NCBI GenBank assembly: GCA_951406725.2
Contig: OX597841.1
Coordinates: forward strand, 8,122,001 to 8,186,000
Source of the DNA: Octopus vulgaris
Taxonomy: Eukaryota
Length of the DNA: 64,000 bases
Reading direction: 5' to 3'
Positions 4,726 through 60,439 of the stretch are shown here, one piece after another. The notes under the pieces were generated by a model, which was not told the DNA's origin, made no database searches, and saw nothing but the letters and a program-made list of their open reading frames with translations. The position numbers and the translations under genes were made by a program. Positions within the stretch are counted from its first letter, which is position 1. Each line of letters starts with the position of its first letter.

Positions 4726-5390
4726 AATATTAATGACCTAAGATTAAGAGACATTCCTCTGAAACACTCTGGCCAAATACCAGGAAAGCCCCGAGTTGTC
4801 TGAAGTACAAATAAATGGCTCTTAGGGACACTGCCAAGGAACTAAGGAAAATATTATCAACCGGAAATTACCTGATTCTTTGAAAACTACCAAAAGTGAA
4901 ATAATTAAGATTTCAGAAAAATCTTGGTTCTTAGGTTGTAGTGTGGTTTGCATAGAATATATGGTTGCTAACGATAAGAGGCAGAAAGTGTAAAACGTCC
5001 AGTTTGCTGTTGGTTGAGGTGTGTGGATGAGGTTTGGAACTGGTCATGTAAAAGCAAACAACAATAAGGTAAACCCTTGGAGGTTGTTGCCGAAAATCTA
5101 AGAATACTTCAACCAAATAAGGAAGGAAGGGAAGGATGAAGGGGGTGGAGGAAGGAAGACAAAGACAAACAGACAGACAGATAAGCAGATTGAGAAAGAA
5201 GGATAGACAAACAGAGAGACAGGAAGATAGCCTGGCAGAGAAATCCTTGCAGAGGGAGGCAAAAGAATGGCGAGAGGGAGGCAAAGAGAATGGCAGAGAG
5301 ATGGAGACAGAGGGAGGCAAAGAGAATGGCAGAGAGATGGAGACAGACAGACAGACGTGTAGATAGGGTGGCATGCATGGACATACTAAC

Positions 5391-5498
5391 CAGAAATAAC
5401 TCGTTAGCACTGTCACTAAGAATGGTGTCATCAGGGGAATCGACAGGGGTCTGTCTGGTGAATTTACTGTCAAAATGGCTAACATCTTCATCTCCACT
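5391..5498 (-). CDS. RPS6KB1: p70 S6 kinase exon, AGC C-tail turn motif ([36 protein letters not shown])
   Basis: 108 nt, AG/GT bounded, phase 0. Closely matches vertebrate S6K1 [35 protein letters not shown]. Confidence 0.96.
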
Positions 5499-5689
5499 CT
5501 GGTTAAAAAAAAACAAAAAACAGGAACATATAGAGTAATATACACACAGCATATATATATATAAATATACATACATCCACACACATATATATATAGAGGA
5601 CGTTTGCATGGAAGGGCAAGAAAACACAACATCCCAGTGAAAAATAAAAGCATTTTGAAAACAAAACTGGCCAACTATCAACTAGGTTA

Positions 5690-12439: not shown

Positions 12440-13170
12440 GATTCCCTATTTCTCGGTCAGTTTAAACATAAACCAGCTGCACTCTGCTACACCCTCTATA
12501 AATTCCCTCCTGGGAATCACCAACTTTAAGAGAATCTTACATTGCTTATAAACTCTACATCTGGATGGACTCATATTAAACTCTGTTGGACTTTTGGATT
12601 TTACTCAAAGGATACTGGAATATTGCACATATATACCCTGATGCCTATAAAACGGATTTACGAATCCAATACCCATACATATCTTACATCTATTTTCTTT
12701 CCTCCATCTCACTCGCTATTTGTATCACATTGAAACTATGACTTAATTTTTCCTCTCACACCGTCTCCGATGAAGGGATATTATTAATTAATATCCTACA
12801 AACAGCTGTAAGACCTTCTATCTATAAATGCTCTAATATCTATACAGCCTTGGTTTTTTTATCTCATTACGCAAAAAATTCATATATTTAATCGAAGACT
12901 GTTTGATTTCCTTATTTTCCTTCTTTTTACCTGTGTGAGTTACAGGTAAGGCTATCTGTGGAGTCATATTTTGTAGCGAAGAAGAAATAACGGTCTTTTG
13001 GCTGCTATTTCTAAATTTTCGGTATGTGGAGAAGCAACTTGTTGCTAAACCCTTAATTACTGTTATAATTAAATATAGAACTTCTTGTATAAGTTTTTAC
13101 TGAATATGGTTCTTTTCTATACCGAAACTACTTGGTAAAATTTATTAATTATAAATTAATAATTTTTTAA
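12440..13170 (+). mobile_element. Penelope-like pLTR relic with decayed hammerhead motif
   Basis: 12763-12814 reads gtct-CCGATGA-stem-CAAAC-agct-GTA-agac. 13000-13170 resembles the pLTR sequence at 55690-55840. Confidence 0.55.
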
Positions 13171-13234
13171 ACCTATATCTATAAAATATATATATATATA
13201 CATATATGTATATATATATATATATTTAATAACG

Positions 13235-13730
13235 AACCATGTAATTTGGAACCCCTATCTTGCACAGAACATTGACCTCCTGGAATCTGTCCAGAGACGT
13301 GCAACCAAACGCATACCCTCCATCAGACACCTACCATATTCTGAGCGCCTTGTTTCCCTGGGCATGGATTCACTGAAGCTCCGGCGTTTGGCGACGGACT
13401 TGGTAAACACCCACAAAGTTATCAACCACCTCACCAACAACAACACTGAACACCTTTTTGATCTCCATGTGTCTAACACACGTGGACATGCCTACAAAGT
13501 CAGAAAACAATACAGCTCCCATGACTTTCGGAAACATTTTTTCACGCTCAGAGTTGCTGAAGCATGGAATAAACTGCCTGCGTCAGTTGTTGACTGCCAT
13601 GACACTGCATCTTTTAAGGCCCTCATGCTTTCCGAAATCCGCCGAAACTACACCTGATTATATATACACTTTAGATGAGTTGTAGTGCACCTGAGCACTG
13701 TACACAATTATTATTATTATTATTATTAAT
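13235..13730 (+). mobile_element. CR1-clade LINE 3' end (RT C-terminus, 3'UTR and (ATT)n tail)
   Basis: WNPYLAQNIDLLESVQRRATKRIP...YSERL..LGMDSLKLRRL...RGHAYKV...FFTLRVAEAWNKLP followed by a short UTR and (att)n. Confidence 0.9.
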
Positions 13731-14667: not shown

Positions 14668-15430
14668 GTCTGTCTCTCTCTCTCTCTATTTATTATGTAA
14701 TGAAAGAAAGGACACGACCATCATGAAATACAACAATGTCTCTTTCAACACGCAACTTCACATGAAGAATCCGGCAAAACAAATGCATAAAAGTATGCCT
14801 GTGTCTGTGTGTATCTTTTATCTTTAATGTGTTTCAGACATTAGACTGTGGCCATGCTGGAGCAACACCTTGAAGAATTTCTAGTCGAAGAATTGAACCC
14901 AGTACATCTTTGTGTTAAGCCTTGTATTTATTCCATCGATCCCTCCATATAGCACCTTCTTTTTCACTCGCCATCCTCTCTCTCTCTCTCTCTCTTTCTA
15001 ACAAACTGAGTCACAATGCAAATATTTCCTTCAGGCATTACACAGTATAATGTGTGATTTAAAGGGATTTGACTGCTATTTCTGCAAGAGAAAATATCGA
15101 TACAACTATATTCACAGATATACAAGAAGTGACTCCCAGACCTCAAAAAGAATTATAGTTCCTCATCCACGCCAGAAATTTTAAGGGGACGGGTTAAATC
15201 GACATTTACCGAAAGTGGTCTAGTCACCAGATAGGGGTCCTGCATGGCCTCACCAGACACACATAAGAGAGTACGCTGTAATTAATTGGTAATTCCAACG
15301 AGCCTACTTTCATTGCAGATAATCCCCTCAGATATTACACAGTATGATGTGTGATTTCAGGAGATTTGACTGCTATTTCTAGAAGGAGATGTATTAGTAC
15401 AACTATATTGATATATATTATTGTTGCTAT

Positions 15431-15475
<45 letters not shown>

Positions 15476-15984
15476 GTGGGGAAATTGGTAGAATCGATGC
15501 CATGCTGGAGGAAATGCTTAATCGCATTTTGTATAGCTTCATGTTGTGAGTTCAAGTTCTGCCTCGGTCGATTTATCCATTTCATCGTTCCAGGGTCAAT
15601 AAATTAAGTACCAGTCAAATACTAAGGATGAAGTAATTGATTAGCTGCCCACAGTAATTGCAGGCCTTGTGCTAATAGTAAAAAGTGAATTAGAGAGAGA
15701 GGGGTAGATAGATCTGTTATAGTATGTGTGTGTGTGTGTGTGTGTGTATAAGCCGATGAGGTGACAGAATCGTTCACACGCAGGGTCGTTGGAGTCAATT
15801 AGTTGCCTCTACTAGAATTCCAGGCCTTGTTTTCTTTAGACAAAGAATGATCACATATGTGTATGGTAGAAAGCGGAAGTCTCCATGGGTGCCCTGGGAC
15901 TGAATGTCGATGTGGGTGAAGATTACAAGGAAAATTTCTGCTCCCAAATTCTGAGAAGAAAAGAGAGTAACAGACAAATGGATG

Positions 15985-20393
<4,409 letters not shown>

Positions 20394-20954
20394 CATCCAT
20401 CATTCTAACTATACAACATATATATATGTTTATATATCAGGGCATTACCATACATAAATGCTTCACACTACGAGGGACTATTAAAGTCAAACTACCATAA
20501 TAAACACATTATATGTGTATATATATATATAAATATATATATAGACTGAACCTGGAACCATGTAGTTGGGAAGCAAGCCTCTTATCACAAAGACTCTCCT
20601 GTTGTTATTTGGATTCGATTTTCACTTCCTCCCTCTTAAGATCTAAAAATCCATTTTGAAATAATTCCACTTGTTTCCAACTGATAAAGCATTCATTTAC
20701 ATTTACTCAACAACTCAAGTGTTTTGTTTACACATTGGTCCCAAAAATGCATATATATATATATATATATACACATGTTTGTGTGCTCCACAAATGTATA
20801 GGCACAGGTGTTCCTGTGTGGTAAGAAGTTTGCTTTTCAACCACAGGGTTCTGTGTTCAGTCCTACTGCATGGCACCTAGGACAATTCTCTTCTATTTTG
20901 ACCTCGGGCCTTGTAAGTGGACCTTGTCAGATGGAAACTGAAGTGAGCCCATCA

Positions 20955-21054
20955 NNNNNNNNNNNNNNNNNNNNNNNNNNNNNNNNNNNNNNNNNNNNNN
21001 NNNNNNNNNNNNNNNNNNNNNNNNNNNNNNNNNNNNNNNNNNNNNNNNNNNNNN
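20955..21054. other. Assembly gap (100 N)
   Basis: Run of exactly 100 N, a typical placeholder for a gap of unknown size. Confidence 0.99.
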
Positions 21055-22589: not shown

Positions 22590-23710
22590 AAATAATAATA
22601 ATAATGAAATTATTGTATACAGTGCTCAGGTGCACCACAACTTGTCAGAAAGTGCGTATAAGGTGTATGCAGTAATGTACAAATGTCTGGAAAGCGAACA
22701 ATGTATGAGTCAGATACATGCTTGCGTGTGTATGGAGGGGAGAAGATCAGGTGTAGTGTTGGCGAATCTCAGGAAGCATGGAAGTTTTGAAGGATGCAGT
22801 GCTCCGACAACTAACAACTGATGCCGGCAGGTTGCTTCCATTCTTGAGTGTGTATGGAGGGGAGAAAATCAGGTGTAGTGTTGGCGAATCTCAGGAAGCA
22901 TGGAAGTTTTGAAGGATGCAGTGCTCCGACAACTAACAACTGATGCCGGCAGTTTGTTCCATTCTTGAGTGTGTATGGAGGGGAGAAATCAGGTGTAGTG
23001 TTGGCGAATCTCAGGAAGCATGGAAGTTTTGAAGGATGCAGTGCTCCGACAACTAACAACTGATGCCGGCAGGTTGTTCCATGCTTGTGTGTGTATGGAG
23101 GGGAGAAAATCAGGTGTAGTGTTGGCGAATCTCAGGAAGCATGGAAGTTTTGAAGGATGCAGTGCTCCGACAACTAACAACTGATGCCGGCAGTTTGTTC
23201 CATGCTTGCGTGTGTATGGAGGGGAGAAAATCAGGTGTAGTGTTGGCGAATCTCAGGAAGCATGGAAGTTTTGAAGGATGCAGTGCTCCGACAACTAACA
23301 ACTGATGCCGGCAGTTTGTTCCATGCTTGCGTGTGTATGGAGGGGAGAAAATCAGGTGTAGTGTTGGCGAATCTCAGAAGCATGGAAGTTTTGAAGGATG
23401 CAGTGCTCGACAATTAACAACTGATGCCGGCAGTTTGTTCCATGCTTGTGTGTGTATGGAGGGGAGACAATCAGGTATAGTGTTGGCGAATCTCAGGAAG
23501 CATGGAAGTTTTGAAGGATGCAGTGCTCAGACAATTAACAACTGATGCCGGCAGTTTGTTCCATGCTTGCGTGTGTATGGAGGGGAGAAAATCAGGTATA
23601 GTTTGGCGAATCTCAGAAAGCATGGAAGTTTTGAAGGATGCAGTGCTCAGACAATTAACAACTGATGCCGGCAGATTGTTCCATGCTTCAGCAACTCTCA
23701 GCGTGAAAAA
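22590..23710 (-). repeat. CR1 LINE 3' end containing 8 tandem ~121-bp units (LINE-derived minisatellite)
   Basis: (AAT)n tail and 3'UTR at ~22590-22715. Units start near 22717, 22839, 22960, 23080, 23201, 23322, 23441 and 23562, each encoding AWNKLPASVVSCRSTASFKTSMLPEIRQHYT on the minus strand. Same family as 13235-13730. Confidence 0.92.
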
Positions 23711-30896: not shown

Positions 30897-32858
30897 TTAT
30901 CTCTCATAATAAAATAATCCATCAAAACGGTTGTCCAAATTTCCGTAAATCATGATGAAATAATCCGAAACATGTATGGCCTTGATGTGACAGACTTCAA
31001 TTTCCTGAGAGCTGAGAAAGATTTCGCATTTGCTGTCTACAGATACTTGGTGGATATTGTTATTAAAATCTGATATGTAAATATTTTCGCCGTGGATGGT
31101 CAAGGATTTGTTGAAAATGTTTGGAAATGGTTCCTCACCTTGAATCATTAGTTGTTGACTTCTTACCCAATTGTCTCTGTACCAACATACATCGTAATGA
31201 TCTTCCTTGTACTTAAGAACGACAATGTCTTCATTCGATGTCACACCCATTGCTACAACCTTCCCCTCCTTCCCTAAATTCACTCGGCCCTTATACTCGT
31301 ACATTTCACCGCCAATGTGAAGTATGTCTGCGTATGTCCCATATGGAATATTACTACATTCATTTGGAGCGTCTTCAAACACACATACCAGATTTTGCCG
31401 TTCTTTTTGTACATTAAATTGTATGGTTTTTCAGTTGTGATCTTTTTTAAAAGACACAAATCTGTATCGAAGAACATCAGTTGTTTATCGTCCCGAAAGA
31501 GGACTACAAATGATTCATCGGTCCATTGACATATATCTTGAGCTTCTTTTTCAAATGTTTGACTGTAAAGCAGATGACCGTCTCCACTGGTGACCATGAG
31601 AGTACATTTATGGAGGAGCACGACGATACTATTGTCTTGTAACATAATTAGCTTAAAAGCATTAAGAAAACAAAACATCGAATTTGAATCTAGTAAACCA
31701 GATAGAGAAAATGAAAGCGGGAACATTGCTGTTCTATGTGGCAGTCTTCTCACTGATATTTCATCAATTCCTAACATACTTTCCGCTATGTAATTACCAC
31801 GTCTTACTTCTATTTCTCTTGATGTACTTCTTCTTTCTCCTCCATCGCCACCGTTTTTAAGTTTGTTAAATAATTCATTACTGAACATTCCCTTCTTCTT
31901 CTGAGATGTAATGGAAGGGAAGTGAAGGCCAAAATCAAGATTCGATAACGACATAGATTCCAGAACCTTCAGTTGGTCCCCATCAATTTTTATAGTATCA
32001 CATTCAATCATGTTGATATGTACACACCAGTAAATATTTCCCACTTTTCTCCATATTATACCATAAGGTACTCGACTTTCCCAAACTTTATATTTCTCCA
32101 AGTTTTGTGACTTCAGTTGAAATATTTCTTGTCTGTTAGGGAGTGTAACCAAGATATTTCTTTCTCCTGTAAAACATACACCACCAACAAAACTTCCAAA
32201 ATCTCTGTAACATAGCAACTTCCCGTCATCATCAAATAGTTTAACATTTCCACTATTGGCCATTTCGCACACAACTGTCTTTCCTTCATCAGAGATATCG
32301 ATATCTTTTACTTGAACAGGACAATTGTTTGTTTGTAACCGTGAAACGGGGAATTTTTGCCGATTAATCTTGTACAAACCTTCAATATATAAGTACGAGT
32401 CATAGTTTGCAACAATTCTCGGGCCTTTACAGTTAATACTGTTGAAATCCAACGGACGTTTATAATGTCTTTCATTTAAGAATATTCTCTTGTATTCACC
32501 GTTCTGCAACAATGAGACAATACGATACTTTTTCGTGTTTTCATAGATGTTCTTCCGTCCAGTAATGTACAAATAAGTATCATCGGTTGCCATAGAAATG
32601 GGTCGGGAATAAATACTGTGCTTAAATGAATATAAATATTGCCCGTTCGGGTTCAGAATAGTGATGAGCCTCTCGGTATTGACGATGATGTTGTCATTAG
32701 CAATAACTGAGATATGGGTGATATTATATCTGTAGCACATCCAAAATAAGTCTATTTCTCTCATAATACGGACAGCTGACTGTATTTCATCGATATATAT
32801 ATAAAACAGGCCGTTTTCAATTTCGGGTATGCGGGTACCACCACCAACATTACTGCTG

Positions 32859-32920
<62 letters not shown>

Positions 32921-35763
32921 GCTTCTGCTGCTGCTGCTGCTGCTACACACCAGTAGATTGTCGGATCGACAAGCGATACAATTGTATCTATTTTCCGTGT
33001 GGTAAGTTGCCAAGACCAATGGGAATTCCACTTTTAATGTCAGCAGTTGATAGTTATTGGTCGTTATAACCAATGTGTTTGATCGCCAGCAACACATATG
33101 TCTAGGGACAACATTTAACTTGATAGAGTCAACAAGTTGACCATCAAAAGTTAATATCTTAATGTTTTCATTTGTGCTGTCATATAAAGCAACCAGGTTA
33201 TTTTCTGTAATAACCAAACAACCAATCTCCACTGGATGTTTATCTCCAAAACTTTGAGGGACAACAACTTCATGAGCTTTATCAGAAACTGTGAGATCTT
33301 GTAGATACAATCTAGAAGACAACATTTCACTGAGACTGATGTTTCTAGAAAATACATCTACCAGATCGATGAACATGTTAATTTGGCTTCTTGTGACATG
33401 ATCTTTCACCAGCAAGTCATGCTCATTTACAGCAAACATGCGGCTGTTGTCTATCAAATGGACACACATTTTATCAATACGTCCACCATAGAGATTGGAT
33501 TGTGTTTTCCCTTGCGACAGTAAAATATTGGGTATCATCTCAATGCTATAAGGACCACCGTCATAACCATAGAGATTGGAGGGTGTTTTCACTTGGGATG
33601 GTAAAACACTTCTTCTCCTCTTCCTGATGATCTTGTAGAAGAATACTGCTTTCTTACCAACAATCAATAGTTTTAGTGTTTCATTTTCTAACGATAATGA
33701 TTTCATTACAAAAGGAATATTAATTTTATGAATTATTTGAACTTGATTACAATTTTTAATGTTTAAAATATCTAAATGCGATGGTTTATCGCAATAACAA
33801 ATAATATGACTTTCACCCAGCTTACACACCCGTACATAAGCCTGGTTTAATGCTACACTTATAACTGCCTTTGATACGTTTCCGAAGACCCGTAATTGCT
33901 TCTCTAGAGGTAATGTGACGCCTATCTGATTATAATTCCATCGACATATATCTGTAGCTGTAGACGGCAGAGATAATCTAGACACAATGTTCCCTTCGTT
34001 GGAAATGTATAACAAACAATCATTATATATGTCGGACAACACCAACTGTCCATTTGCCAGATGACATATTTCACCAATGAGAACTTGGTCATTCTCCTTT
34101 TCTTCGAGTCGAATATTTAGATTTTTATTATAAGGGTTTTGAAAGGTTACATGACAGTCTGACCAGTCATGGTACTTGTAAAGAAGAATCCGACTGAGCA
34201 GATCGTCCAGCACATAAGCTGTTCCTTGGAAAACAGCAGCGTGACAGCGAAAGTTTGAAGGAAGTTTCAACTGCCATTTCCTTTGTCCAGTTATATTGTA
34301 ACAAGTCATCAAAGACTCTCTCCTGAAGATAACATAGAAGTATAATTTGTCTGTGAAAACATGATGAGGATAGCCATTGAACTCAATGTGTTTCTTGGAA
34401 AGCTCCTCACCAAAGCTTGAATAAAATAACAAGTTACGTTTCTTTCTGTCTACAACTACAAAATTAATTGGAGTAGCAGCAATGGCGACATTGTCATGTT
34501 CCAATGAAATTCTGTTTACAATGTCGACATGATCCTTTTTAATCAATAAAATATGTACCTCCACTTTACCTTCATTGGTGGTCAGAGCCAAACACCTATT
34601 TGATACCATATGACACATTTGAATGTAATTGTTTTCGACGTCTATTAAATCACCTTCAGTTAGTTGTGGACAGGTAATATACTGAAGTTTCCTGTCCTCA
34701 CTAAAAAGGACAAGAAATGTGTTCGAATCCACTCTGCAGAAAACAGAAGGCTGGAGTTTAAAGGTTAAACATTTTCCACCAAACGGTTGCCCTTCGTCAG
34801 TAACTAATATAGCTTTTAGATCCCGATATATAATTACTACTGAAGAGGCTGACATAGGTAGAATCGTTGTAATGTTGGAGGGGTCATCAATATGGATTTG
34901 GTTTATCAGGCTCGGGACATGGTCTTGGTGATGGTAAGACAGCCGAGGCCAAAAATCTTTATTTGTCCTAATAATATGTGCAAGACCAAAACGGTCAGTC
35001 AAGTAAATATTATTTGTTGCCACACAAATATATCGAGCTTTTATCCCAATTTCTCTTTGGGACACAGCACCGTTTGCTGAAATCTTGTAAATTACATTTC
35101 CTTGCAGAGCGTAAGAATAATTTCGATATACGGTGAGGTCGGTTGGAATATCGATGGAATGGGTCCTCAACTGAAACAAGTGTCTGCCATCTATTGTGTA
35201 ACAGCTAATTCTATTTATATTAGCTAAGGCTATTAAGATATGATACTGTGGACCAACTGCTATGTTTCCAACAATTTCTTGCACACTAAATTTTTCTTCA
35301 AATTTATTTTTATCCCAGTCTATGAGATATATTGTCTTACTAAACATTTCAGTCCCTACAAATGTAGAATGTTCGAAATAGGAAATTGTAAAGAAACTAT
35401 AATCCAGAGATTTTATGTGGAAACTTGATGGATTAATGAAAACTATTTTCTTGCGGAAAGGAATTGTGGCTAGAACAGTGTGTTCACCAATTCTTGTCAT
35501 GTCTGTGACATTAGAAGAACAATGAAAATCAAAATCACCGCCTGTTGTGGCACAACTTATTAACTTCAAATCTGGTGAATAGGTTACTATTCCATTGCAG
35601 ATTTCAACGATTCTTGAAACTGTGACCAGGTTCTTGGAATCATTATCGGAGTCTGTGAGCTGCAATATTTTGGACACAGCTGGGCAAAGGGGACGGAATT
35701 TGGATGAATGCGACTTCATAATACTTTTACAGTCAAAACGTGGTATCTGCATGTAGTGATCAT
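30897..35763 (-). CDS. Giant terminal exon of the ANK-RING (Mind-bomb-like) gene: six tandem NHL/TRIM-like beta-propeller units, with a 1-nt frameshift at ~31395
   Basis: Acceptor gttattcAG at 35764-35765, phase 1 (G+AT = Asp, DHYMQIPRF), matches the upstream mini-exon. A 1490-aa ORF continues in the overlapping 161-aa ORF. Six repeated units begin near aa 46, 294, 559, 843, 1148 and 1365 with a pattern like I..i.....++v.d.....+...G.......p.d+C......+.V..p.... The fold call is by eye. Confidence 0.8.
32852..32944 (-). repeat. Coding (AGT)n/(AGC)n microsatellite encoding a poly-Ser tract
   Basis: In-frame trinucleotide run giving ~30 Ser within the large ORF. Confidence 0.95.
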
Positions 35764-37920: not shown

Positions 37921-38937
37921 CTGAGCTGCAAAGCAGCCTTCTACTTGAATAAAGGCAATATTGAATAGATGTAATGGTTGAATAGTGGACGTAATGACAG
38001 TGAAAAAAAACCAGGCTGTTCACTATTGGAACAAGTTTCACCATAAGTTTCTGGTTAAGCAAAAGCGCCAACAACAATAATCAATCAGTAAGCTTACTAA
38101 AAATGTAAAACGAACAAACACTTTGTCATTAAATCACCCGTTTACCTTTAAACAACAAAATCCTTTTAGTTCCTATTCTAAAGGACAATATCATTTTCTA
38201 CTCTAGGCACAAGGCCAGAATCTTTTGGCGACGGAGTCAGTCGATTAGATCGACCCCAGTACGCAACTGGTACTCAATTTATCGGCCTCGAAAGGATGGA
38301 AGGCAAAATCGACCTCGGTGGAATTTGAACTTAGGATGTAAAGACAGATGAAGTAAAGCTAAGCATTTCGCCCGGCGTTCTAATGTTTCTGCCAGCTCAC
38401 CACCTTCCCAAAGGACAATATTAACTCTATTCTGTTTTCTAATTTAGCCATTTTGCCAACAGCGATAACCTTGGTGGACATTTTATTAAATTTCAATAAT
38501 AACAATATTTTAAAAAACAAATTGATGTGGTTACTTGACTGGGAACGAGAGGAGCTGCTGCTTGTTGTATACAAAGGGAGTGGAAGAGAGCGAAAAAGGG
38601 AGAGGACGAGAGAGACTAAATTGAGATGACAGACGGTATTTATTCTCCTTAAAGGGACAGAACCGCTTAAGGGTTTATATTTTATCTTTTGCATATTTCT
38701 CCTTATCTTGAGACGCCTTTTTTTCTGAGTGGAAGAATATCTGATGCTTCCACTTTTCTATAAAATCCATTTCTTGGATATTCCTGTAGTTGTACAAGAA
38801 TAGAAAAAAAATGTGTAGCTAACCATTCGAAATAAATGTAGCAAAAGAACTTGTTCTCAGTCATTCTGTCAAACAAAGTTGCTCGGAAAATGGTAAAATT
38901 GATAGAAATCAATAAGGTATTGGCAATTTATACTCAC

Positions 38938-38988
38938 CAGCTGGCTCCACCTCTGTTTGGACTTCATTGTCAACAAGCGTTAAAGTAA
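38938..38988 (-). CDS. 51-nt symmetric (phase 1-1) mini-exon, (V)TLTLVDNEVQTEVEPA
   Basis: ttgtttcAG acceptor and GTgagt donor; open frame; paralogue of 40146-40196. Confidence 0.8.
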
Positions 38989-39782
38989 CTGAAACAAAAT
39001 TTTCTAAATTTTACACTTTACAGAAAAATGTCTTTATCTTAATTAATAATCTAAATTTTGTTATTCTGTGACATTCCTGTCATTGATGGTCAACTGGTGA
39101 CCCGTACGGCTTGGGTCAACATTTTCATACTTCCTATAGGGATACCATGTAATAACTCAATATTCAGGTCCACCACTAAATAGACTAACCTTCATATATC
39201 TCCATATTAAGACATCCCACATAATCTAAGGATCACTCTATTAAGATATCTACATAATCTAATAATTATCTTATATAATTATCACTTGATAACACTGATT
39301 ATCTCTTAGCTTAATTTTCCCTTTCATCTATCGGAGCCCAGTCTATGATATGGAATTGTTCTCTCACCTCCAGATTTCCCTAATGAACTCCCAGGAAGAA
39401 TGGGACGAAATGGTGAGTAATGATCTTGAAATGTTGAGCCTAACAGTCACTTGGCAGTTTGCTGTGCTTGAGAACAACCACCAACCTAAATCAAGGGCAT
39501 AAGCGCCTGTTTGTCCCCCAACAATGCCTCCCCCACAGATGTCGCATTCTCCTCCCTTCTCCCTCATGTACCTACATGCACATATGATGCCCTACTGTTT
39601 CTCATCCCCAACCATATCCACCATTCCTCCTCCCGCTACTACCTTCCTTTCACAAACTTATAAACTAACCCTCCCTCCCAGATCACTCTCTGTCGTATTT
39701 CACCATTTTCTGTATCGACACATGAGGCAGCCATAGAAACAAAGGCAAAATAGGCATTTGTGGGCTGTTATTTTATACTTAT

Positions 39783-39836
39783 CAACTGGCTCTGCTACCA
39801 TCGTCTGCACTTATTTCCCTTCAAGCTTTAGATTCT
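39783..39836 (-). pseudogene. Dead third copy of the mini-exon (ENLKLEGK*VQTMVAEPV)
   Basis: Intact tatttcAG acceptor, but in-frame TAA at 39811-39813 and donor mutated to ATaagt. Confidence 0.75.
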
Positions 39837-40145
39837 CTGAAATAAATATTATTTACACTAAAACCATTTTATCATTACCAATAATCTATATTCTGTTATT
39901 GTGAGAGATTCCTATCATCAATGGTCTACAAGAGTTCACACAGGTTTCGGTCAATATTTATATACTTTCAACAGTGGGCCCATTATTGATGCCCTCCACA
40001 AAATTGATTGGCATTCCTAAATCTCCGCTCTCAATTAAGACATCTTACATATCTCATTTACTTCTCACGTATCCACCTTAATAAAGTAGATGAGGTAATG
40101 GCAAACTTGATAGAAGTCAAAAAGGTAATGTTGATTTATACTCAC

Positions 40146-40196
40146 CAACTGGTTCTACTTCTGTTTGAACTTCATTGTCAACAAGTGCTGGCGTCT
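40146..40196 (-). CDS. 51-nt symmetric (phase 1-1) mini-exon, (E)TPALVDNEVQTEVEPV
   Basis: tatttcAG acceptor and GTgagt donor; phase 1 matches the end of the RING exon. Confidence 0.8.
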
Positions 40197-41073
40197 CTGA
40201 AATAAATATTCTAAATTTTACACTTCATAGAAAAACATCTTTATATTTCTTAATAATCAAAATGTTATTCTTGTGAGGTATTCCTGTCGTTGCTGGTCAG
40301 CTGGTGACCAGTACTGCTCGGGTCGACATTTTCATACTTTCTACAGTAATACCATGGAATAGCTCAATATCCAGGTCCACAACTAAATAGACTCACCTTC
40401 CTATATATCCCAATTATGGCATCCTACATAATCTAACAATAACCCTATTAAGATATCTATATAATCTAATCATTACCTTCTTTAATTTTCATTTGAAAAC
40501 ACTGATAATCACCTAGATTAATTTGCCCTTTCATCAGTCGGAGCCCTATCAATGATTTGGCCTTGTCTTATCACCTGCAGATTTCTCTAATCAACATTCT
40601 TCTCCTCTTCTCATTCTGATGTCAATGAAGCTGGTCTCCAAACATCTAACCATAAACGCATGTCACAATACATCAAGTAGGATTAATATACACCTGCTCT
40701 CTTTTTAAAAGGTTGCTGCTGGTAATCTTTAATCTTAAATCCCCACATCACAATTCATCAGAATAGAATATGATTCTGGAAACATTTGAAGATATTTCAA
40801 TGTAATTAATCCTCCTTAATAAGCAGCTATTTTCAGGTGAACAATCTTTGTCCTAAGCAAGTGGAGCGGAAAGTGATATCAGGTATCCCAAAACACTGTA
40901 CTCTTGTATAGAAACTCATTAACTAGACACACAAACACACACACATATACACACATGCACACAATCACACACACATACACATATATTTATGTGTGTGTGT
41001 ATGTATATATGTATATGTATGTAGATGTGTATGTATATATATACATAGGTTTATACATACATGCATACATATA

Positions 41074-41483: not shown

Positions 41484-42215
41484 CTAGCATTAAAGACCCG
41501 TCGTTGCCGGGTCATAGTGCTAGTGCATGTATATATGTGTATATATTTGTGTACATATTACATTTACATCTATAAATATACATCTACACATAAAATGCAA
41601 AATACAAAGTTATATCTTGATATCGCTAGTGATAACAATACTCAAAATATATAACAGACTGGAATTGTTAGCTCTTCTTTTTTCTCTACATTGTATACTT
41701 TACAGACAATAGTCTTTTCTTTAATTTAACTTTTTACTATCCATCTGGACTATTTCATTTCTGCACGCTAATTTTATTTTTAATTTATTCCCATTCATGT
41801 GAAACCACTTATTCTAGTTCAAATCATTGATGCAATTTTATACCAATTGCGACTTTTCCTTTTGTTATGTTACGATTATATTATAATTTAGTTTGATTTT
41901 AATTATTACTTACTACATATAATTCAATTGTTATTATTATTTTTATTGTTAAAGTGAAAGCATCTGACATAAAATAGAGAATTATTTTTGTTTCACTTTT
42001 AACACGTAATACTGAAATAGCGAAGATATGATATTGCTATGGGCTCGCTCTAGGCAAGAAGTTGAACATTTTCGTTGGCCCATGACACTCCCCGGACCCT
42101 AAGTAAGGCATATGTAAAATCTGAATGAAATTGGTTGTGTAGTTCTCAAGTTTTAGGGAAACACACAGACAGACAGACAGACAGACACACATTCTCAGTT
42201 TTAAATATATAAAGA
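41484..42215 (-). mobile_element. Non-autonomous Helitron-like element
   Basis: The minus-strand 3' end has hairpin gacccggcaacgacgggtc then CTAG|T; the 5' end is TC...tatat followed by (GTCT)n. A fragment of the same family lies at ~45790-46010. Confidence 0.65.
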
Positions 42216-43399: not shown

Positions 43400-44650
<1,251 letters not shown>

Positions 44651-45769: not shown

Positions 45770-47435
45770 GCATCCATATACATACAATAGAGATGTTTTT
45801 GTTTCACTTTAACACGTAATACTGAAATAGTGGAGATGTGATATTGCTGTGGGCTCGCCCTAGGAAAGAAATTAAACATTTTTTCACATGACTCGACATG
45901 GACCCTAAGTAAGGCATGTGTAAAATTTGAATTAAATTGGTTGTGTAGTTCTCAAGTTTTAGGGATTCACACAGACAGACAGATTCATATTTTCAGTTTT
46001 ATATATATAGGTATCTTGTTATTGTGAGACATTCAATTCCTGACGTTAATGGTCAACTGTTGATTACTATGGTTTTGGTCAATATTTCTGTACTTTCTAC
46101 AGTGGTCTCATGTAATAGCCCAATATTTATGTACACAATAGAATAGACTAACATTCCTAAATCCCATCTCTCTATACAGACATCCTACATAATCTAATAA
46201 TGTTGCAATTATCTCGTAAAATTAACACTTGATGACAGTTTTCTCTTGGCGTTGTCTTTCTTTTCTTATAACTGTGCCAAATCTATGGCATGGCACTGTC
46301 CTCCCATCTCTAGAATTTACTAATCAACATTCCTCTCTAATTAAGTAAAACTGAGGCCATTAAGACATGTTCTTTATGTGCATACCCTCCACCCCGCACA
46401 CAATCTGTCCCCTAAAAATCATCTCCACAACATGATCCCTAACAAGATGTAAAATGTTAGGTGAGGGTACACAATGTTCCTATGACAAAATATGTTTACA
46501 TTTCAGACATACAAATGTAAGAGAGTTAATGAATTATAGCTTATTAATTATCATGATAATTGGGTATATATGTGATACAATGGCACTGTGCTTGACGGTG
46601 CAATACTAGATATCAATATAGATTGTATATAATCTGAGTAAAGAACATATAACCTTCATTACAATGAATATGATTGTGTCTCAGCACAGCTAATATTATG
46701 GTAGTTCCATGAGCAAACAAAGAAAGATATAACCAAGTCCACTGCCAAATAATAATGATTAATTCATTTCCTGGTCAAATAACAATGACTAACTTCCATT
46801 AAATAATTTGAACGCAACAATCAAGACCAAAGGGTGAAACACTCAGAAAACTGTGCCTCTTTTAGCATTAATATCATCTAAAATCTAACAAGAGTGAGAA
46901 AAAGAATGACTATATGGATGGTAAATGTTGTTCAAACAATGTAATAAGTGTATATTATATATAGTTACAAACAAGGATTTGTGAGATCAAGTCACACAGG
47001 GAACTCATATTTAATTCCTATCTTTATATTTTATGTCAACACCAATGTTTTGTTTAAATGTAAACAGATGTTCACCGTTCAATACTAAATTTAATATTTA
47101 ATCAACGTTAATGATCATTATACTTATACTCTTAGAGATTTGATTTTTAATTTTATTAATTTATAACAATGTTATTCTGACCTGAGACATTCAGGGTAGC
47201 TACCTAAACAGCATATCATGACAGACATCTTGAAGTGTGACATCTTAAAATTAGATAAAGACAATATTTAGTGGATGTAGTGATAGATATACTGTCACAA
47301 AGAAAAGACCTCAGGGACACCTATCATAAATCTGTCCCATTATGACATACCTGGGTCTACACGAAAGCTTGAAGCACATTATTCCACACAATAAGGTCAA
47401 CAAGACAACAAACAGAGCCCCAAAGATTATCTTAC

Positions 47436-47578
47436 CAAATTCACTTTTGCTGAGTGTGTATTCTCGACACACGGGGCATCTCTTAAATGTCATTTCAGAA
47501 GAACAATTCTCGCAGAGAACAAGATCTCCACATGGTTGCAGTCTCACGGTGGCCATGTTCTCTTGACACCAGCGACAT
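47436..47578 (-). CDS. RING finger exon (CRWCQENMATVRLQPCGDLVLCENC...KRCPVC) of the Mind-bomb-like gene
   Basis: ttccatAG / GTaaga. Phase 2 in (CC+A = Pro) and phase 1 out. MIB/IAP-type RING spacing. Confidence 0.9.
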
Positions 47579-56525: not shown

Positions 56526-56704
56526 GGCGTTGGTGGGAATAACGTCTTTAACGTTTTTTTTAATTTTGCCTTTTTTATTAGGTCCAATGGTGTTCTGCCA
56601 CTTTTGTTTTTACAGTAAAAGTTGGCCCCGTGGTGGGCTAGGTAACTGGCAACCACCACGCCAGAGTACCTTTCTTCGCTTCCCAGTTTCAGATCCTTGC
56701 AGAA
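56526..56704 (-). CDS. Last ankyrin-region exon of the Mind-bomb-like gene (FCKDLKLGSEERYSGVVVASYLAHHGANFYCKNKSGRTPLDLIKK...LFPPT)
   Basis: tttgtAG / GTaagt; 179 nt, phase 0 to phase 2; ankyrin motif GA....N..G.TPLDL, as in MIB1/MIB2 just before the RING. Confidence 0.9.
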
Positions 56705-60226: not shown

Positions 60227-60439
60227 CTGATCTAACATGGTCATGTGCTCCACCTCTGAATGAAAGTTGTTTTCTCTTTTTAACGCCAGATGCAGGCAAT
60301 TATTTCCTCCATGTTCGACAACATTTACATTCGCGCCCCTGGCTATCAGCCGCTGCATTATTCCGAGGTGACCGTCCGAAACAGCTTCAAGCAATGGTGT
60401 CCTATATTCTTTGTTCACAATTTCTAAATTCACCGAATC
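60227..60439 (-). CDS. Ankyrin-repeat exon of the Mind-bomb (MIB2)-like gene (DSVNLEIVNKEYRTPLLEAVSDGHLGIMQRLIARGANVNVVEHGGNNCLHLALKR...MLDQ)
   Basis: ccacaaAG / GTaagt; 213 nt, phase 0-0; canonical ankyrin consensus (TPL..A...GH..+...L+..GA.VN.....G...LH.A). Upstream exons lie beyond the window. Confidence 0.93.

Follow-up and report, generated by a model that had tools for sequence, protein, structure and literature searches.

Duplicated mini-exons with predicted LC8 docking sites behind the RING of an Octopus vulgaris ankyrin-RING gene

On the minus strand of a 64,000-nucleotide stretch of Octopus vulgaris DNA (assembly GCA_951406725.2, contig OX597841.1, positions 8,122,001 to 8,186,000; hereafter the window, i.e., the whole stretch that was analysed, with coordinates counted from its first letter) lies a gene that joins ankyrin repeats, a RING domain, a cassette of duplicated mini-exons and a giant exon for predicted beta-propellers. 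A preliminary description of this DNA had proposed that the mini-exons of this gene (the cassette gene) encode binding motifs for LC8, a subunit of dynein. In our analysis the two live mini-exons, E1 and E3, are spliced and under selection, and each encodes a copy of a unit of 17 residues that, with fair probability, forms an LC8 (DYNLL) docking site behind the RING.

Architecture of the cassette gene

The window is octopus DNA, with the closest proteins named O. vulgaris or O. sinensis and sharing 96-99% identity across the large exon. The part of the cassette gene seen here consists of two ankyrin exons, a RING exon, the mini-exons and the last exon, with an unbroken series of splice phases (0, 2, 1, 1, 1), and all coordinates given for it are on the minus strand. 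The first ankyrin-repeat exon (60227..60439, phase 0-0) was recognised from the Pfam Ank profile (E 1.6e-8) and its splice sites, and more exons probably lie upstream of 60439, outside the window. It is followed by a degenerate ankyrin/pre-RING exon (56526..56704, phase 0-2), located by tblastn with P0033 and by its splice sites, with residues as in the public model P0066, and then by the RING exon (47436..47578, phase 2-1), of C3HC4 type with Asp replacing the His ligand, whose domain passes the profile test (PF13920, 37.8 bits on P0066 vs. a cut-off of 27). The mini-exon cassette lies between this RING exon and the giant last exon (30897..35763).

The last exon, delimited by its open reading frames, the joint from E3 and a phase-1 acceptor, is predicted to encode tandem beta-propellers. 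That is, its first 655 residues gave an all-beta model (mean pLDDT 76.7) whose best fold matches were tandem beta-propellers, with an NHL-repeat lead in the Atlas (0.92) and no Pfam match. The last-exon family comprised 64 matches, 60 of them 38-60% identical, and those relatives with a recognisable exon start had unrelated N-termini without LC8-like units. Most ankyrin-RING relatives end in a death domain, whereas the cassette gene carries the propeller exon instead, a difference that the preliminary description had missed. From these patterns we infer that the cassette gene arose as a phase-1 exon-shuffled fusion, with the propeller exon in place of the death-domain exons. P0033 shows a different ankyrin-RING part joined to a near-identical propeller exon, which may be a second fusion or an annotation artefact. 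A trinucleotide microsatellite within the last exon (32827-32946) yields a long poly-serine tract.

Live, dead and exon-less copies of the unit

The cassette contains three exon-plus-intron units, and a fourth copy of the intron part lies apart from them. Unit 1 has the live mini-exon E1 (40146..40196; 51 nt, phase 1-1) next to its intron part (40197..40595), and unit 3 has the live mini-exon E3 (38938..38988; 51 nt, phase 1-1) next to its own (38989..39388); both exons have an AG acceptor, a GT donor, splice joints and one predicted LC8 site each. As had been noted from the letters of the DNA, these two exons keep the same 12 residues. Between them, unit 2 combines a shortened intron part (39837..40110; 72% identity to units 1 and 3) with a dead mini-exon, E2 (39783..39836), for which the in-frame stop (TAA) and the GT>AT donor change described earlier held up, its length being 54 rather than 51 nt. 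The intron-only copy placed earlier at about 46015-46330 was recovered at 46013..46328 on the minus strand (blastn E 3e-27, and by alignment), and it adjoins a repeat at the place where an exon would be expected. The birth-and-death of units put forward in the preliminary description is thus visible in this gene as two live, one dead and one exon-less copy. No further exon copy was found in the window, the next best place having 27/51 bases in common.

The intron parts share 68-82% identity in pairwise comparisons, with scores of 125-508, whereas 100 shuffles of each pair never scored above 42. The most recent duplication is that between units 1 and 3 (their intron parts being 82% identical, vs. 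68-76% for the other pairs). The exons have 39/51 bases in common between E1 and E3 and 33/51 between E2 and either of them. Between E1 and E3 there are 6.5 silent changes over 11.8 sites (pS 0.55) and 3.5 replacements over 36.2 sites (pN 0.097; Fisher p=0.005), and the 8-residue motif has no replacement at all although silent sites differ. E1 and E3 are under purifying selection.

The repeat that adjoins the exon-less unit (45887-46009) has a second copy at 42081-42211, and its insertion may have removed the mini-exon of that unit. A hidden second coding exon was considered in the intron part at 40340-40270, where the frame is open and units 1 and 3 differ mostly by silent changes; however, a stop follows, and there is neither a donor nor a joint, and the candidate was rejected.

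Splicing of the mini-exons

Splicing was read from the contigs of seven runs, none of which is on record as RNA (their marking as possible RNA is a guess), and we relied on exact GT-AG joints. The preliminary description had named a complete lack of splicing as an outcome that would speak against it, and what we observed was the opposite: E1 is joined to E3 in five of the seven runs (X1, X2, X4, X5 and X12), which come from five studies and two organisms, at depths of 54-439 and with 21-48 bases on the shorter side of the joint. The joint was not seen in X7 or X15, the latter being of unknown kind, 76% read and only a weak DNA-like control. The joint from E3 to the last exon was present in all four runs whose stretch covered it, and elsewhere, in X2 and X12, letters of the last exon appear as a loose end at E3. 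Both joints have canonical ends (CT..AC on the plus strand), and no joint using E2 was found in the seven runs. A retrocopy as the origin of these joints was considered; it is conceivable but not needed. At 40230/39887 and 40340-40270, contigs of another unit copy run over the intron part at depths of 48-396, so that some other gene may retain this part or use it as an exon.

Paralogues and their linker units

A search with the ankyrin-RING part gave 31 matches among 91 candidates, all from Octopus, and further members came from cluster look-ups and from a profile search. The latter covered 1.84 billion proteins, but generic ankyrins dominated its output, and it is uninformative on the range of the family beyond Octopus; of its 150 best matches other than the known ones, five had a RING, again all from Octopus. 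An Atlas search with the RING-linker-death part gave no usable match. The paralogues usually follow the order ankyrin, RING, linker and death domain, with PF00531 above its cut-off in P0082, P0165, P0228 and P0276 and below it in P0084/P0119. One type of ankyrin repeat in the paralogues P0068-P0136 keeps its framework unchanged while its surface positions vary (21 distinct copies), a pattern that fits variable sensors.

The linkers of these paralogues consist of 0-6 units, mostly of 17 residues, that are homologous to E1 and E3; when we speak of exons for them, this is deduced from unit length and from differences among isoforms, the latter resting on database models. Annotated isoforms have 1-4 units in one O. 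sinensis gene (P0087, P0121-P0124) and 3-5 units in one O. bimaculoides gene (P0084, P0119, P0120), while another gene shows combinations of four units across the 14 isoforms read. The skipping of symmetric exons suggested earlier thus appears as whole-unit skipping in annotated isoforms of paralogues. In the cluster of P0276, isoforms of one O. sinensis paralogue, numbered to X22, combine four units, only one of which has an intact anchor (defined below), and several models of the P0068-P0136 series end by reading through a unit donor into the intron, without a death domain.

Fit of the unit to the LC8 motif

Positions in the motif are counted from the Gln of the VQT anchor (position 0). In 56 proteins (redundant isoforms included), the anchor string T/V/I-Q-T was counted 34 times among the 2,378 residues of the linkers and not once among the 18,850 other residues. 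We then compared columns among 33 distinct units in 15 clusters, which had been cut by unit starts and not by the motif, leaving out one unrelated 22-residue unit. Positions 0 and -1 were the most conserved, the triple -1/0/+1 was equalled or exceeded by only 2 of 560 position triples, and the set -4, -3, -1, 0, +1 by 18 of 4,368 five-position sets, with the reservation, to be counted against our interpretation, that units related by descent are not independent samples. The anchor is therefore the most conserved part of the unit, and the lack of preferential VQT conservation that the preliminary description had named as damaging was not what the paralogues displayed. The weighted unit consensus (D 0.55, K 0.67, V 0.80, Q 0.85 and T 0.69), i.e., D-K-x-V-Q-T, agrees with the LC8 consensus in PMC3078936.

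In both E1 and E3 the VQT follows the anchor rule for LC8 (T/V/I at -1, Q at 0 and T/V at +1; PMC6607443), and the surrounding residues conform to other LC8 preferences (a polar residue, often Asp, at -4; D/E/P at +2; no proline inside the motif), with Asp at -4, Glu at +2 and no Pro from -5 to +2. By-eye comparison and hand counts in Table S4 of PMC6607443 (79 binders, 32 non-binders) gave V at -1 in 6/79 binders vs. 0/32 non-binders, E at -2 in 13/79 vs. 1/32, and E at +2 in 17/79 vs. 3/32. Residues that favour binding occupy -4, -2, -1, 0, +1 and +2 of the window motif. Among proven binders, ZFPM1 is matched by a P0201 unit at 7/8 positions, gephyrin by a P0096 unit at 6/8 and BMF by a P0082 unit at 6/8; the window motif is identical to ASCIZ/ATMIN and WWC1 binders at 5/8 positions. 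As to the disordered setting expected of LC8 motifs, the linker formed by E1 and E3 has 34 residues, is of variable length in the family and lies between folded domains, with the next 25 residues modelled at pLDDT <50. Among the 44 complete linkers, 24 have no intact anchor, nine have one, six have two, four have three and one has four; that is, two or more predicted sites per chain are found in 11/44 paralogue linkers (2-4 anchors) and in the two exons spliced together here. Structure prediction can separate LC8 binders from non-binders (PMC12057147). A natural LC8 sequence (L009) is 87/89 identical to DYNLL2.

Relation to known systems

The family carries the database name Mind bomb, and MIB1/MIB2 do share with it ankyrin repeats followed by a PF13920-type RING. 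However, the octopus relatives scanned lack the Mib-Herc2, ZZ and REP domains, have one RING, and continue with a death domain or propellers (the 5' end of the cassette gene being outside the window). TRIM-NHL proteins, for their part, combine a RING, a B-box and coiled coil that form a dimerising linker, and C-terminal NHL propellers. The cassette gene resembles them in having a RING, a putative dimerising linker and predicted, C-terminal propellers that may be NHL-like; it differs in that probably only a 34-residue linker without B-box or coiled coil separates RING and propellers, in the ankyrins in front and in the several propellers. Judged by predicted domains, it is a member of neither group. 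The public annotation should be corrected in this respect: the model of the cassette gene leaves out E1 and E3, and the "MIB2-like" name is misleading.

The closest parallels for the linker come from LC8 clients. ASCIZ/ATMIN, like the octopus proteins, has several QT-anchored sites in one linker, some of them weak, and their occupancy has been proposed to tune activity; the number of sites is fixed in each species (7 or 11), with proven binding (PMC12017986). In the octopus family, by contrast, the unit is one symmetric exon, unit number varies among paralogues and isoforms, the array adjoins a RING, and the sites are predicted from sequence. In myosin Va, an alternative tiny exon likewise decides whether an LC8 site is present (PMC3078936, with its references Hodi 2006 and Wagner 2006), namely the 9-bp, tissue-specific exon B (PMC9284544); this is a single on/off site completed by three residues, whereas the octopus exons each hold a whole site and form an array. 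The single-site binders ZFPM1, gephyrin, BMF and WWC1, whose motifs are identical to octopus units at 5-7/8 positions (Table S4, PMC6607443), are unrelated proteins, and the likeness is confined to the 8-mer. The cassette is likely an LC8-docking array of variable valency, akin to multivalent LC8 clients combined with a splice switch of the myosin Va type. Multivalent clients and one splice-controlled site were already known. In the open-access literature that was searched, we found no one-site-per-exon LC8 arrays, no LC8 sites beside a RING, no account of the linker of this octopus family, and no cassette next to a RING in which exons with one site each are born, die and are combined by splicing. 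If binding holds, the family would offer nature's own set of proteins with 0-4 sites on a common scaffold, in which the control of dimerisation and E3 output by LC8 valency could be studied, as well as an example of linear-motif arrays that grow through exon duplication.

Proposed mechanism and alternative explanations

Many RING ligases require dimerisation. Under our model, two parallel chains would be zipped together by LC8 dimers directly after the RING, in the manner of multivalent clients, and more sites would pair more tightly the RING together with the death domain (most paralogues) or the propellers (the cassette gene). As the exons are symmetric (phase 1-1), their duplication, death or skipping would keep the frame, and site number would therefore differ per gene or isoform. 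The sites of the window are probably weak singly, given Asn at -3 and three acidic residues, and binding would depend on the avidity that a pair of sites provides; their spacing of 17 residues could rescue them, because neighbouring weak sites are known to be rescued by bivalency, with strongly raised affinity (PMC6607443, PMC12017986). We regard it as likely that the unit family evolved as LC8 sites, and we lean, with less assurance, towards both predicted sites of the cassette gene binding LC8 in a cell. That site number measurably tunes ubiquitin-ligase output is a tentative hypothesis, and ligase activity itself is a prediction, since the RING has Asp in place of His. It is more speculative still, and on balance doubtful, that the family represents sensor ligases with variable ankyrins, in which the mini-exons, one by one, set the threshold of activation, with 0-4 LC8 clamps per chain in a portable RING-plus-clamp module and, in the cassette gene, a TRIM-NHL mimic where LC8 replaces the coiled coil.

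Several observations weigh against this interpretation, first of all at the level of the motif. The -3 position prefers large, often basic residues; paralogues mostly have Lys there and both window copies have Asn, a residue found at -3 in 1/79 binders and 1/32 non-binders of Table S4. Several like charges are unfavourable in LC8 motifs and many anchor-containing peptides fail to bind (PMC6607443), and the window 8-mer has three acidic residues, as do some binders in Table S4. The strict anchor is present in only 17/33 distinct units, and Val at +2, seen in 1/79 binders and 4/32 non-binders, occurs in 10/33. Thirteen further units, assigned by eye outside the column test, have only three intact anchors, with Gln at position 0 in five, Lys in six and Glu in one, plus one short unit without the anchor; none of the six units of P0228 keeps the anchor intact. 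In the propeller-type paralogues nearest to the cassette gene (P0004/P0067) there is just one unit, and its residue at 0 is Glu. Finally, over the whole exon, replacement divergence between E1 and E3 is not significantly under 18% as in the introns (binomial p=0.20; small numbers). That arrays also expand and get spliced with the anchor lost fits a mixture of live and dead sites, but it also fits a different role for the units.

Specifically, the units might be frame-neutral spacers, perhaps seeded by an LC8 site, gained and lost through unequal crossing-over and drift, with selection on the length or composition of the linker and not on the number of LC8 sites. The 24/44 complete linkers without an anchor, the expansion of units with Lys at 0 (VKT) in the P0228/P0276 clade, the Glu at 0 in the closest paralogue, the dead and exon-less copies of the cassette gene, and a Pro at -8 that is conserved as much as Thr at +1 speak for spacers. 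However, conservation across three Octopus species peaks at 0 and -1 and extends to -4/-3, the motif is unchanged between E1 and E3 despite their differences at silent sites, and the anchor is absent outside the linker. We consider the spacer explanation unlikely on this evidence, yet the most serious of the alternatives. Overall, the earlier interpretation in terms of LC8 docking gained from splicing, anchor conservation and birth-and-death, and lost from the many paralogue units without an intact anchor.

Other observations weigh against a present function of the cassette gene itself, which might be a transcribed, decaying fusion with a cassette that no longer does anything. A one-base frameshift near 31395, in an A-run, cuts off about 170 residues relative to P0003/P0033, which read through the site; the assembly may be wrong here, or the allele is a null. 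In addition, the RING lacks the expected His, units have died or lost their exon, and close paralogue models are truncated or without Ank-RING. Bearing on the main interpretation and not on decay, the public model P0066, with ankyrin, RING and last-exon residues as here, joins the RING directly to the last exon and omits both mini-exons. That the RING exon is spliced to E1 is suggested by phase, order and paralogue architecture, the joint lying beyond the stretches covered. In X4, a single contig runs from E1 straight into the last exon (at a depth of 8.4 vs. 23.8, with 23 bases on the shorter side). E3 may thus be skipped, but this is unproven in the cassette gene, because a one-exon paralogue could yield the X4 joint at 90% likeness. 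Against decay, the mini-exons are spliced in five studies and two organisms, about 1,450 open codons precede the frameshift, and the Asp-type RING is common to 23/54 family sequences parsed. One-base shifts in A-runs are a common assembly error. Hence, we hold decay of the cassette gene to be improbable.

Alternatively, the motif could dock a partner other than LC8 (e.g., an adaptor of a death-domain pathway), convergent on a beta-strand ligand. Some units depart from the LC8 rules by having Lys, Glu or Trp at 0, by Met at +1 or by Val at +2, and they are still kept and spliced in annotated isoforms; in contrast, the full D-K-x-V-Q-T pattern fits the LC8 consensus and near-identical proven binders. 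The consensus patterns of TRAF, SIAH and ATM sites fit the units poorly by eye, which also counts against another partner and leaves it with little credibility. LC8 binding for dynein loading or transport and not for dimerisation, conceivable for a dynein subunit, is the least credible alternative, given several sites per chain, which suit dimerisation, and the reviewed clients, in which LC8 brings about dimerisation within polybivalent complexes that are symmetric (PMC12017986).

Other features of the window

Apart from the cassette gene, the window contains a few other elements. Minus-strand exons at 397-696 and 4931-5674 match the C-terminus of P0066, a model in which Pfam recognises a protein-kinase C-terminal domain (PF00433), and probably belong to a neighbouring kinase gene that has been fused to the cassette gene in the public model. 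ORF pieces that resemble retroelement remnants, an impression from their motifs, and a tandem repeat of about 121 bp lie at 43836-44597 (minus strand), 13163-13657 (plus strand) and 22811-23373, with no Pfam match for the first two of these places. Lastly, a short high-copy repeat lies at 38185-38405, where contig depths add up to 15,000-21,000 in each of the four runs covering it, and our guess is that it is SINE-like.

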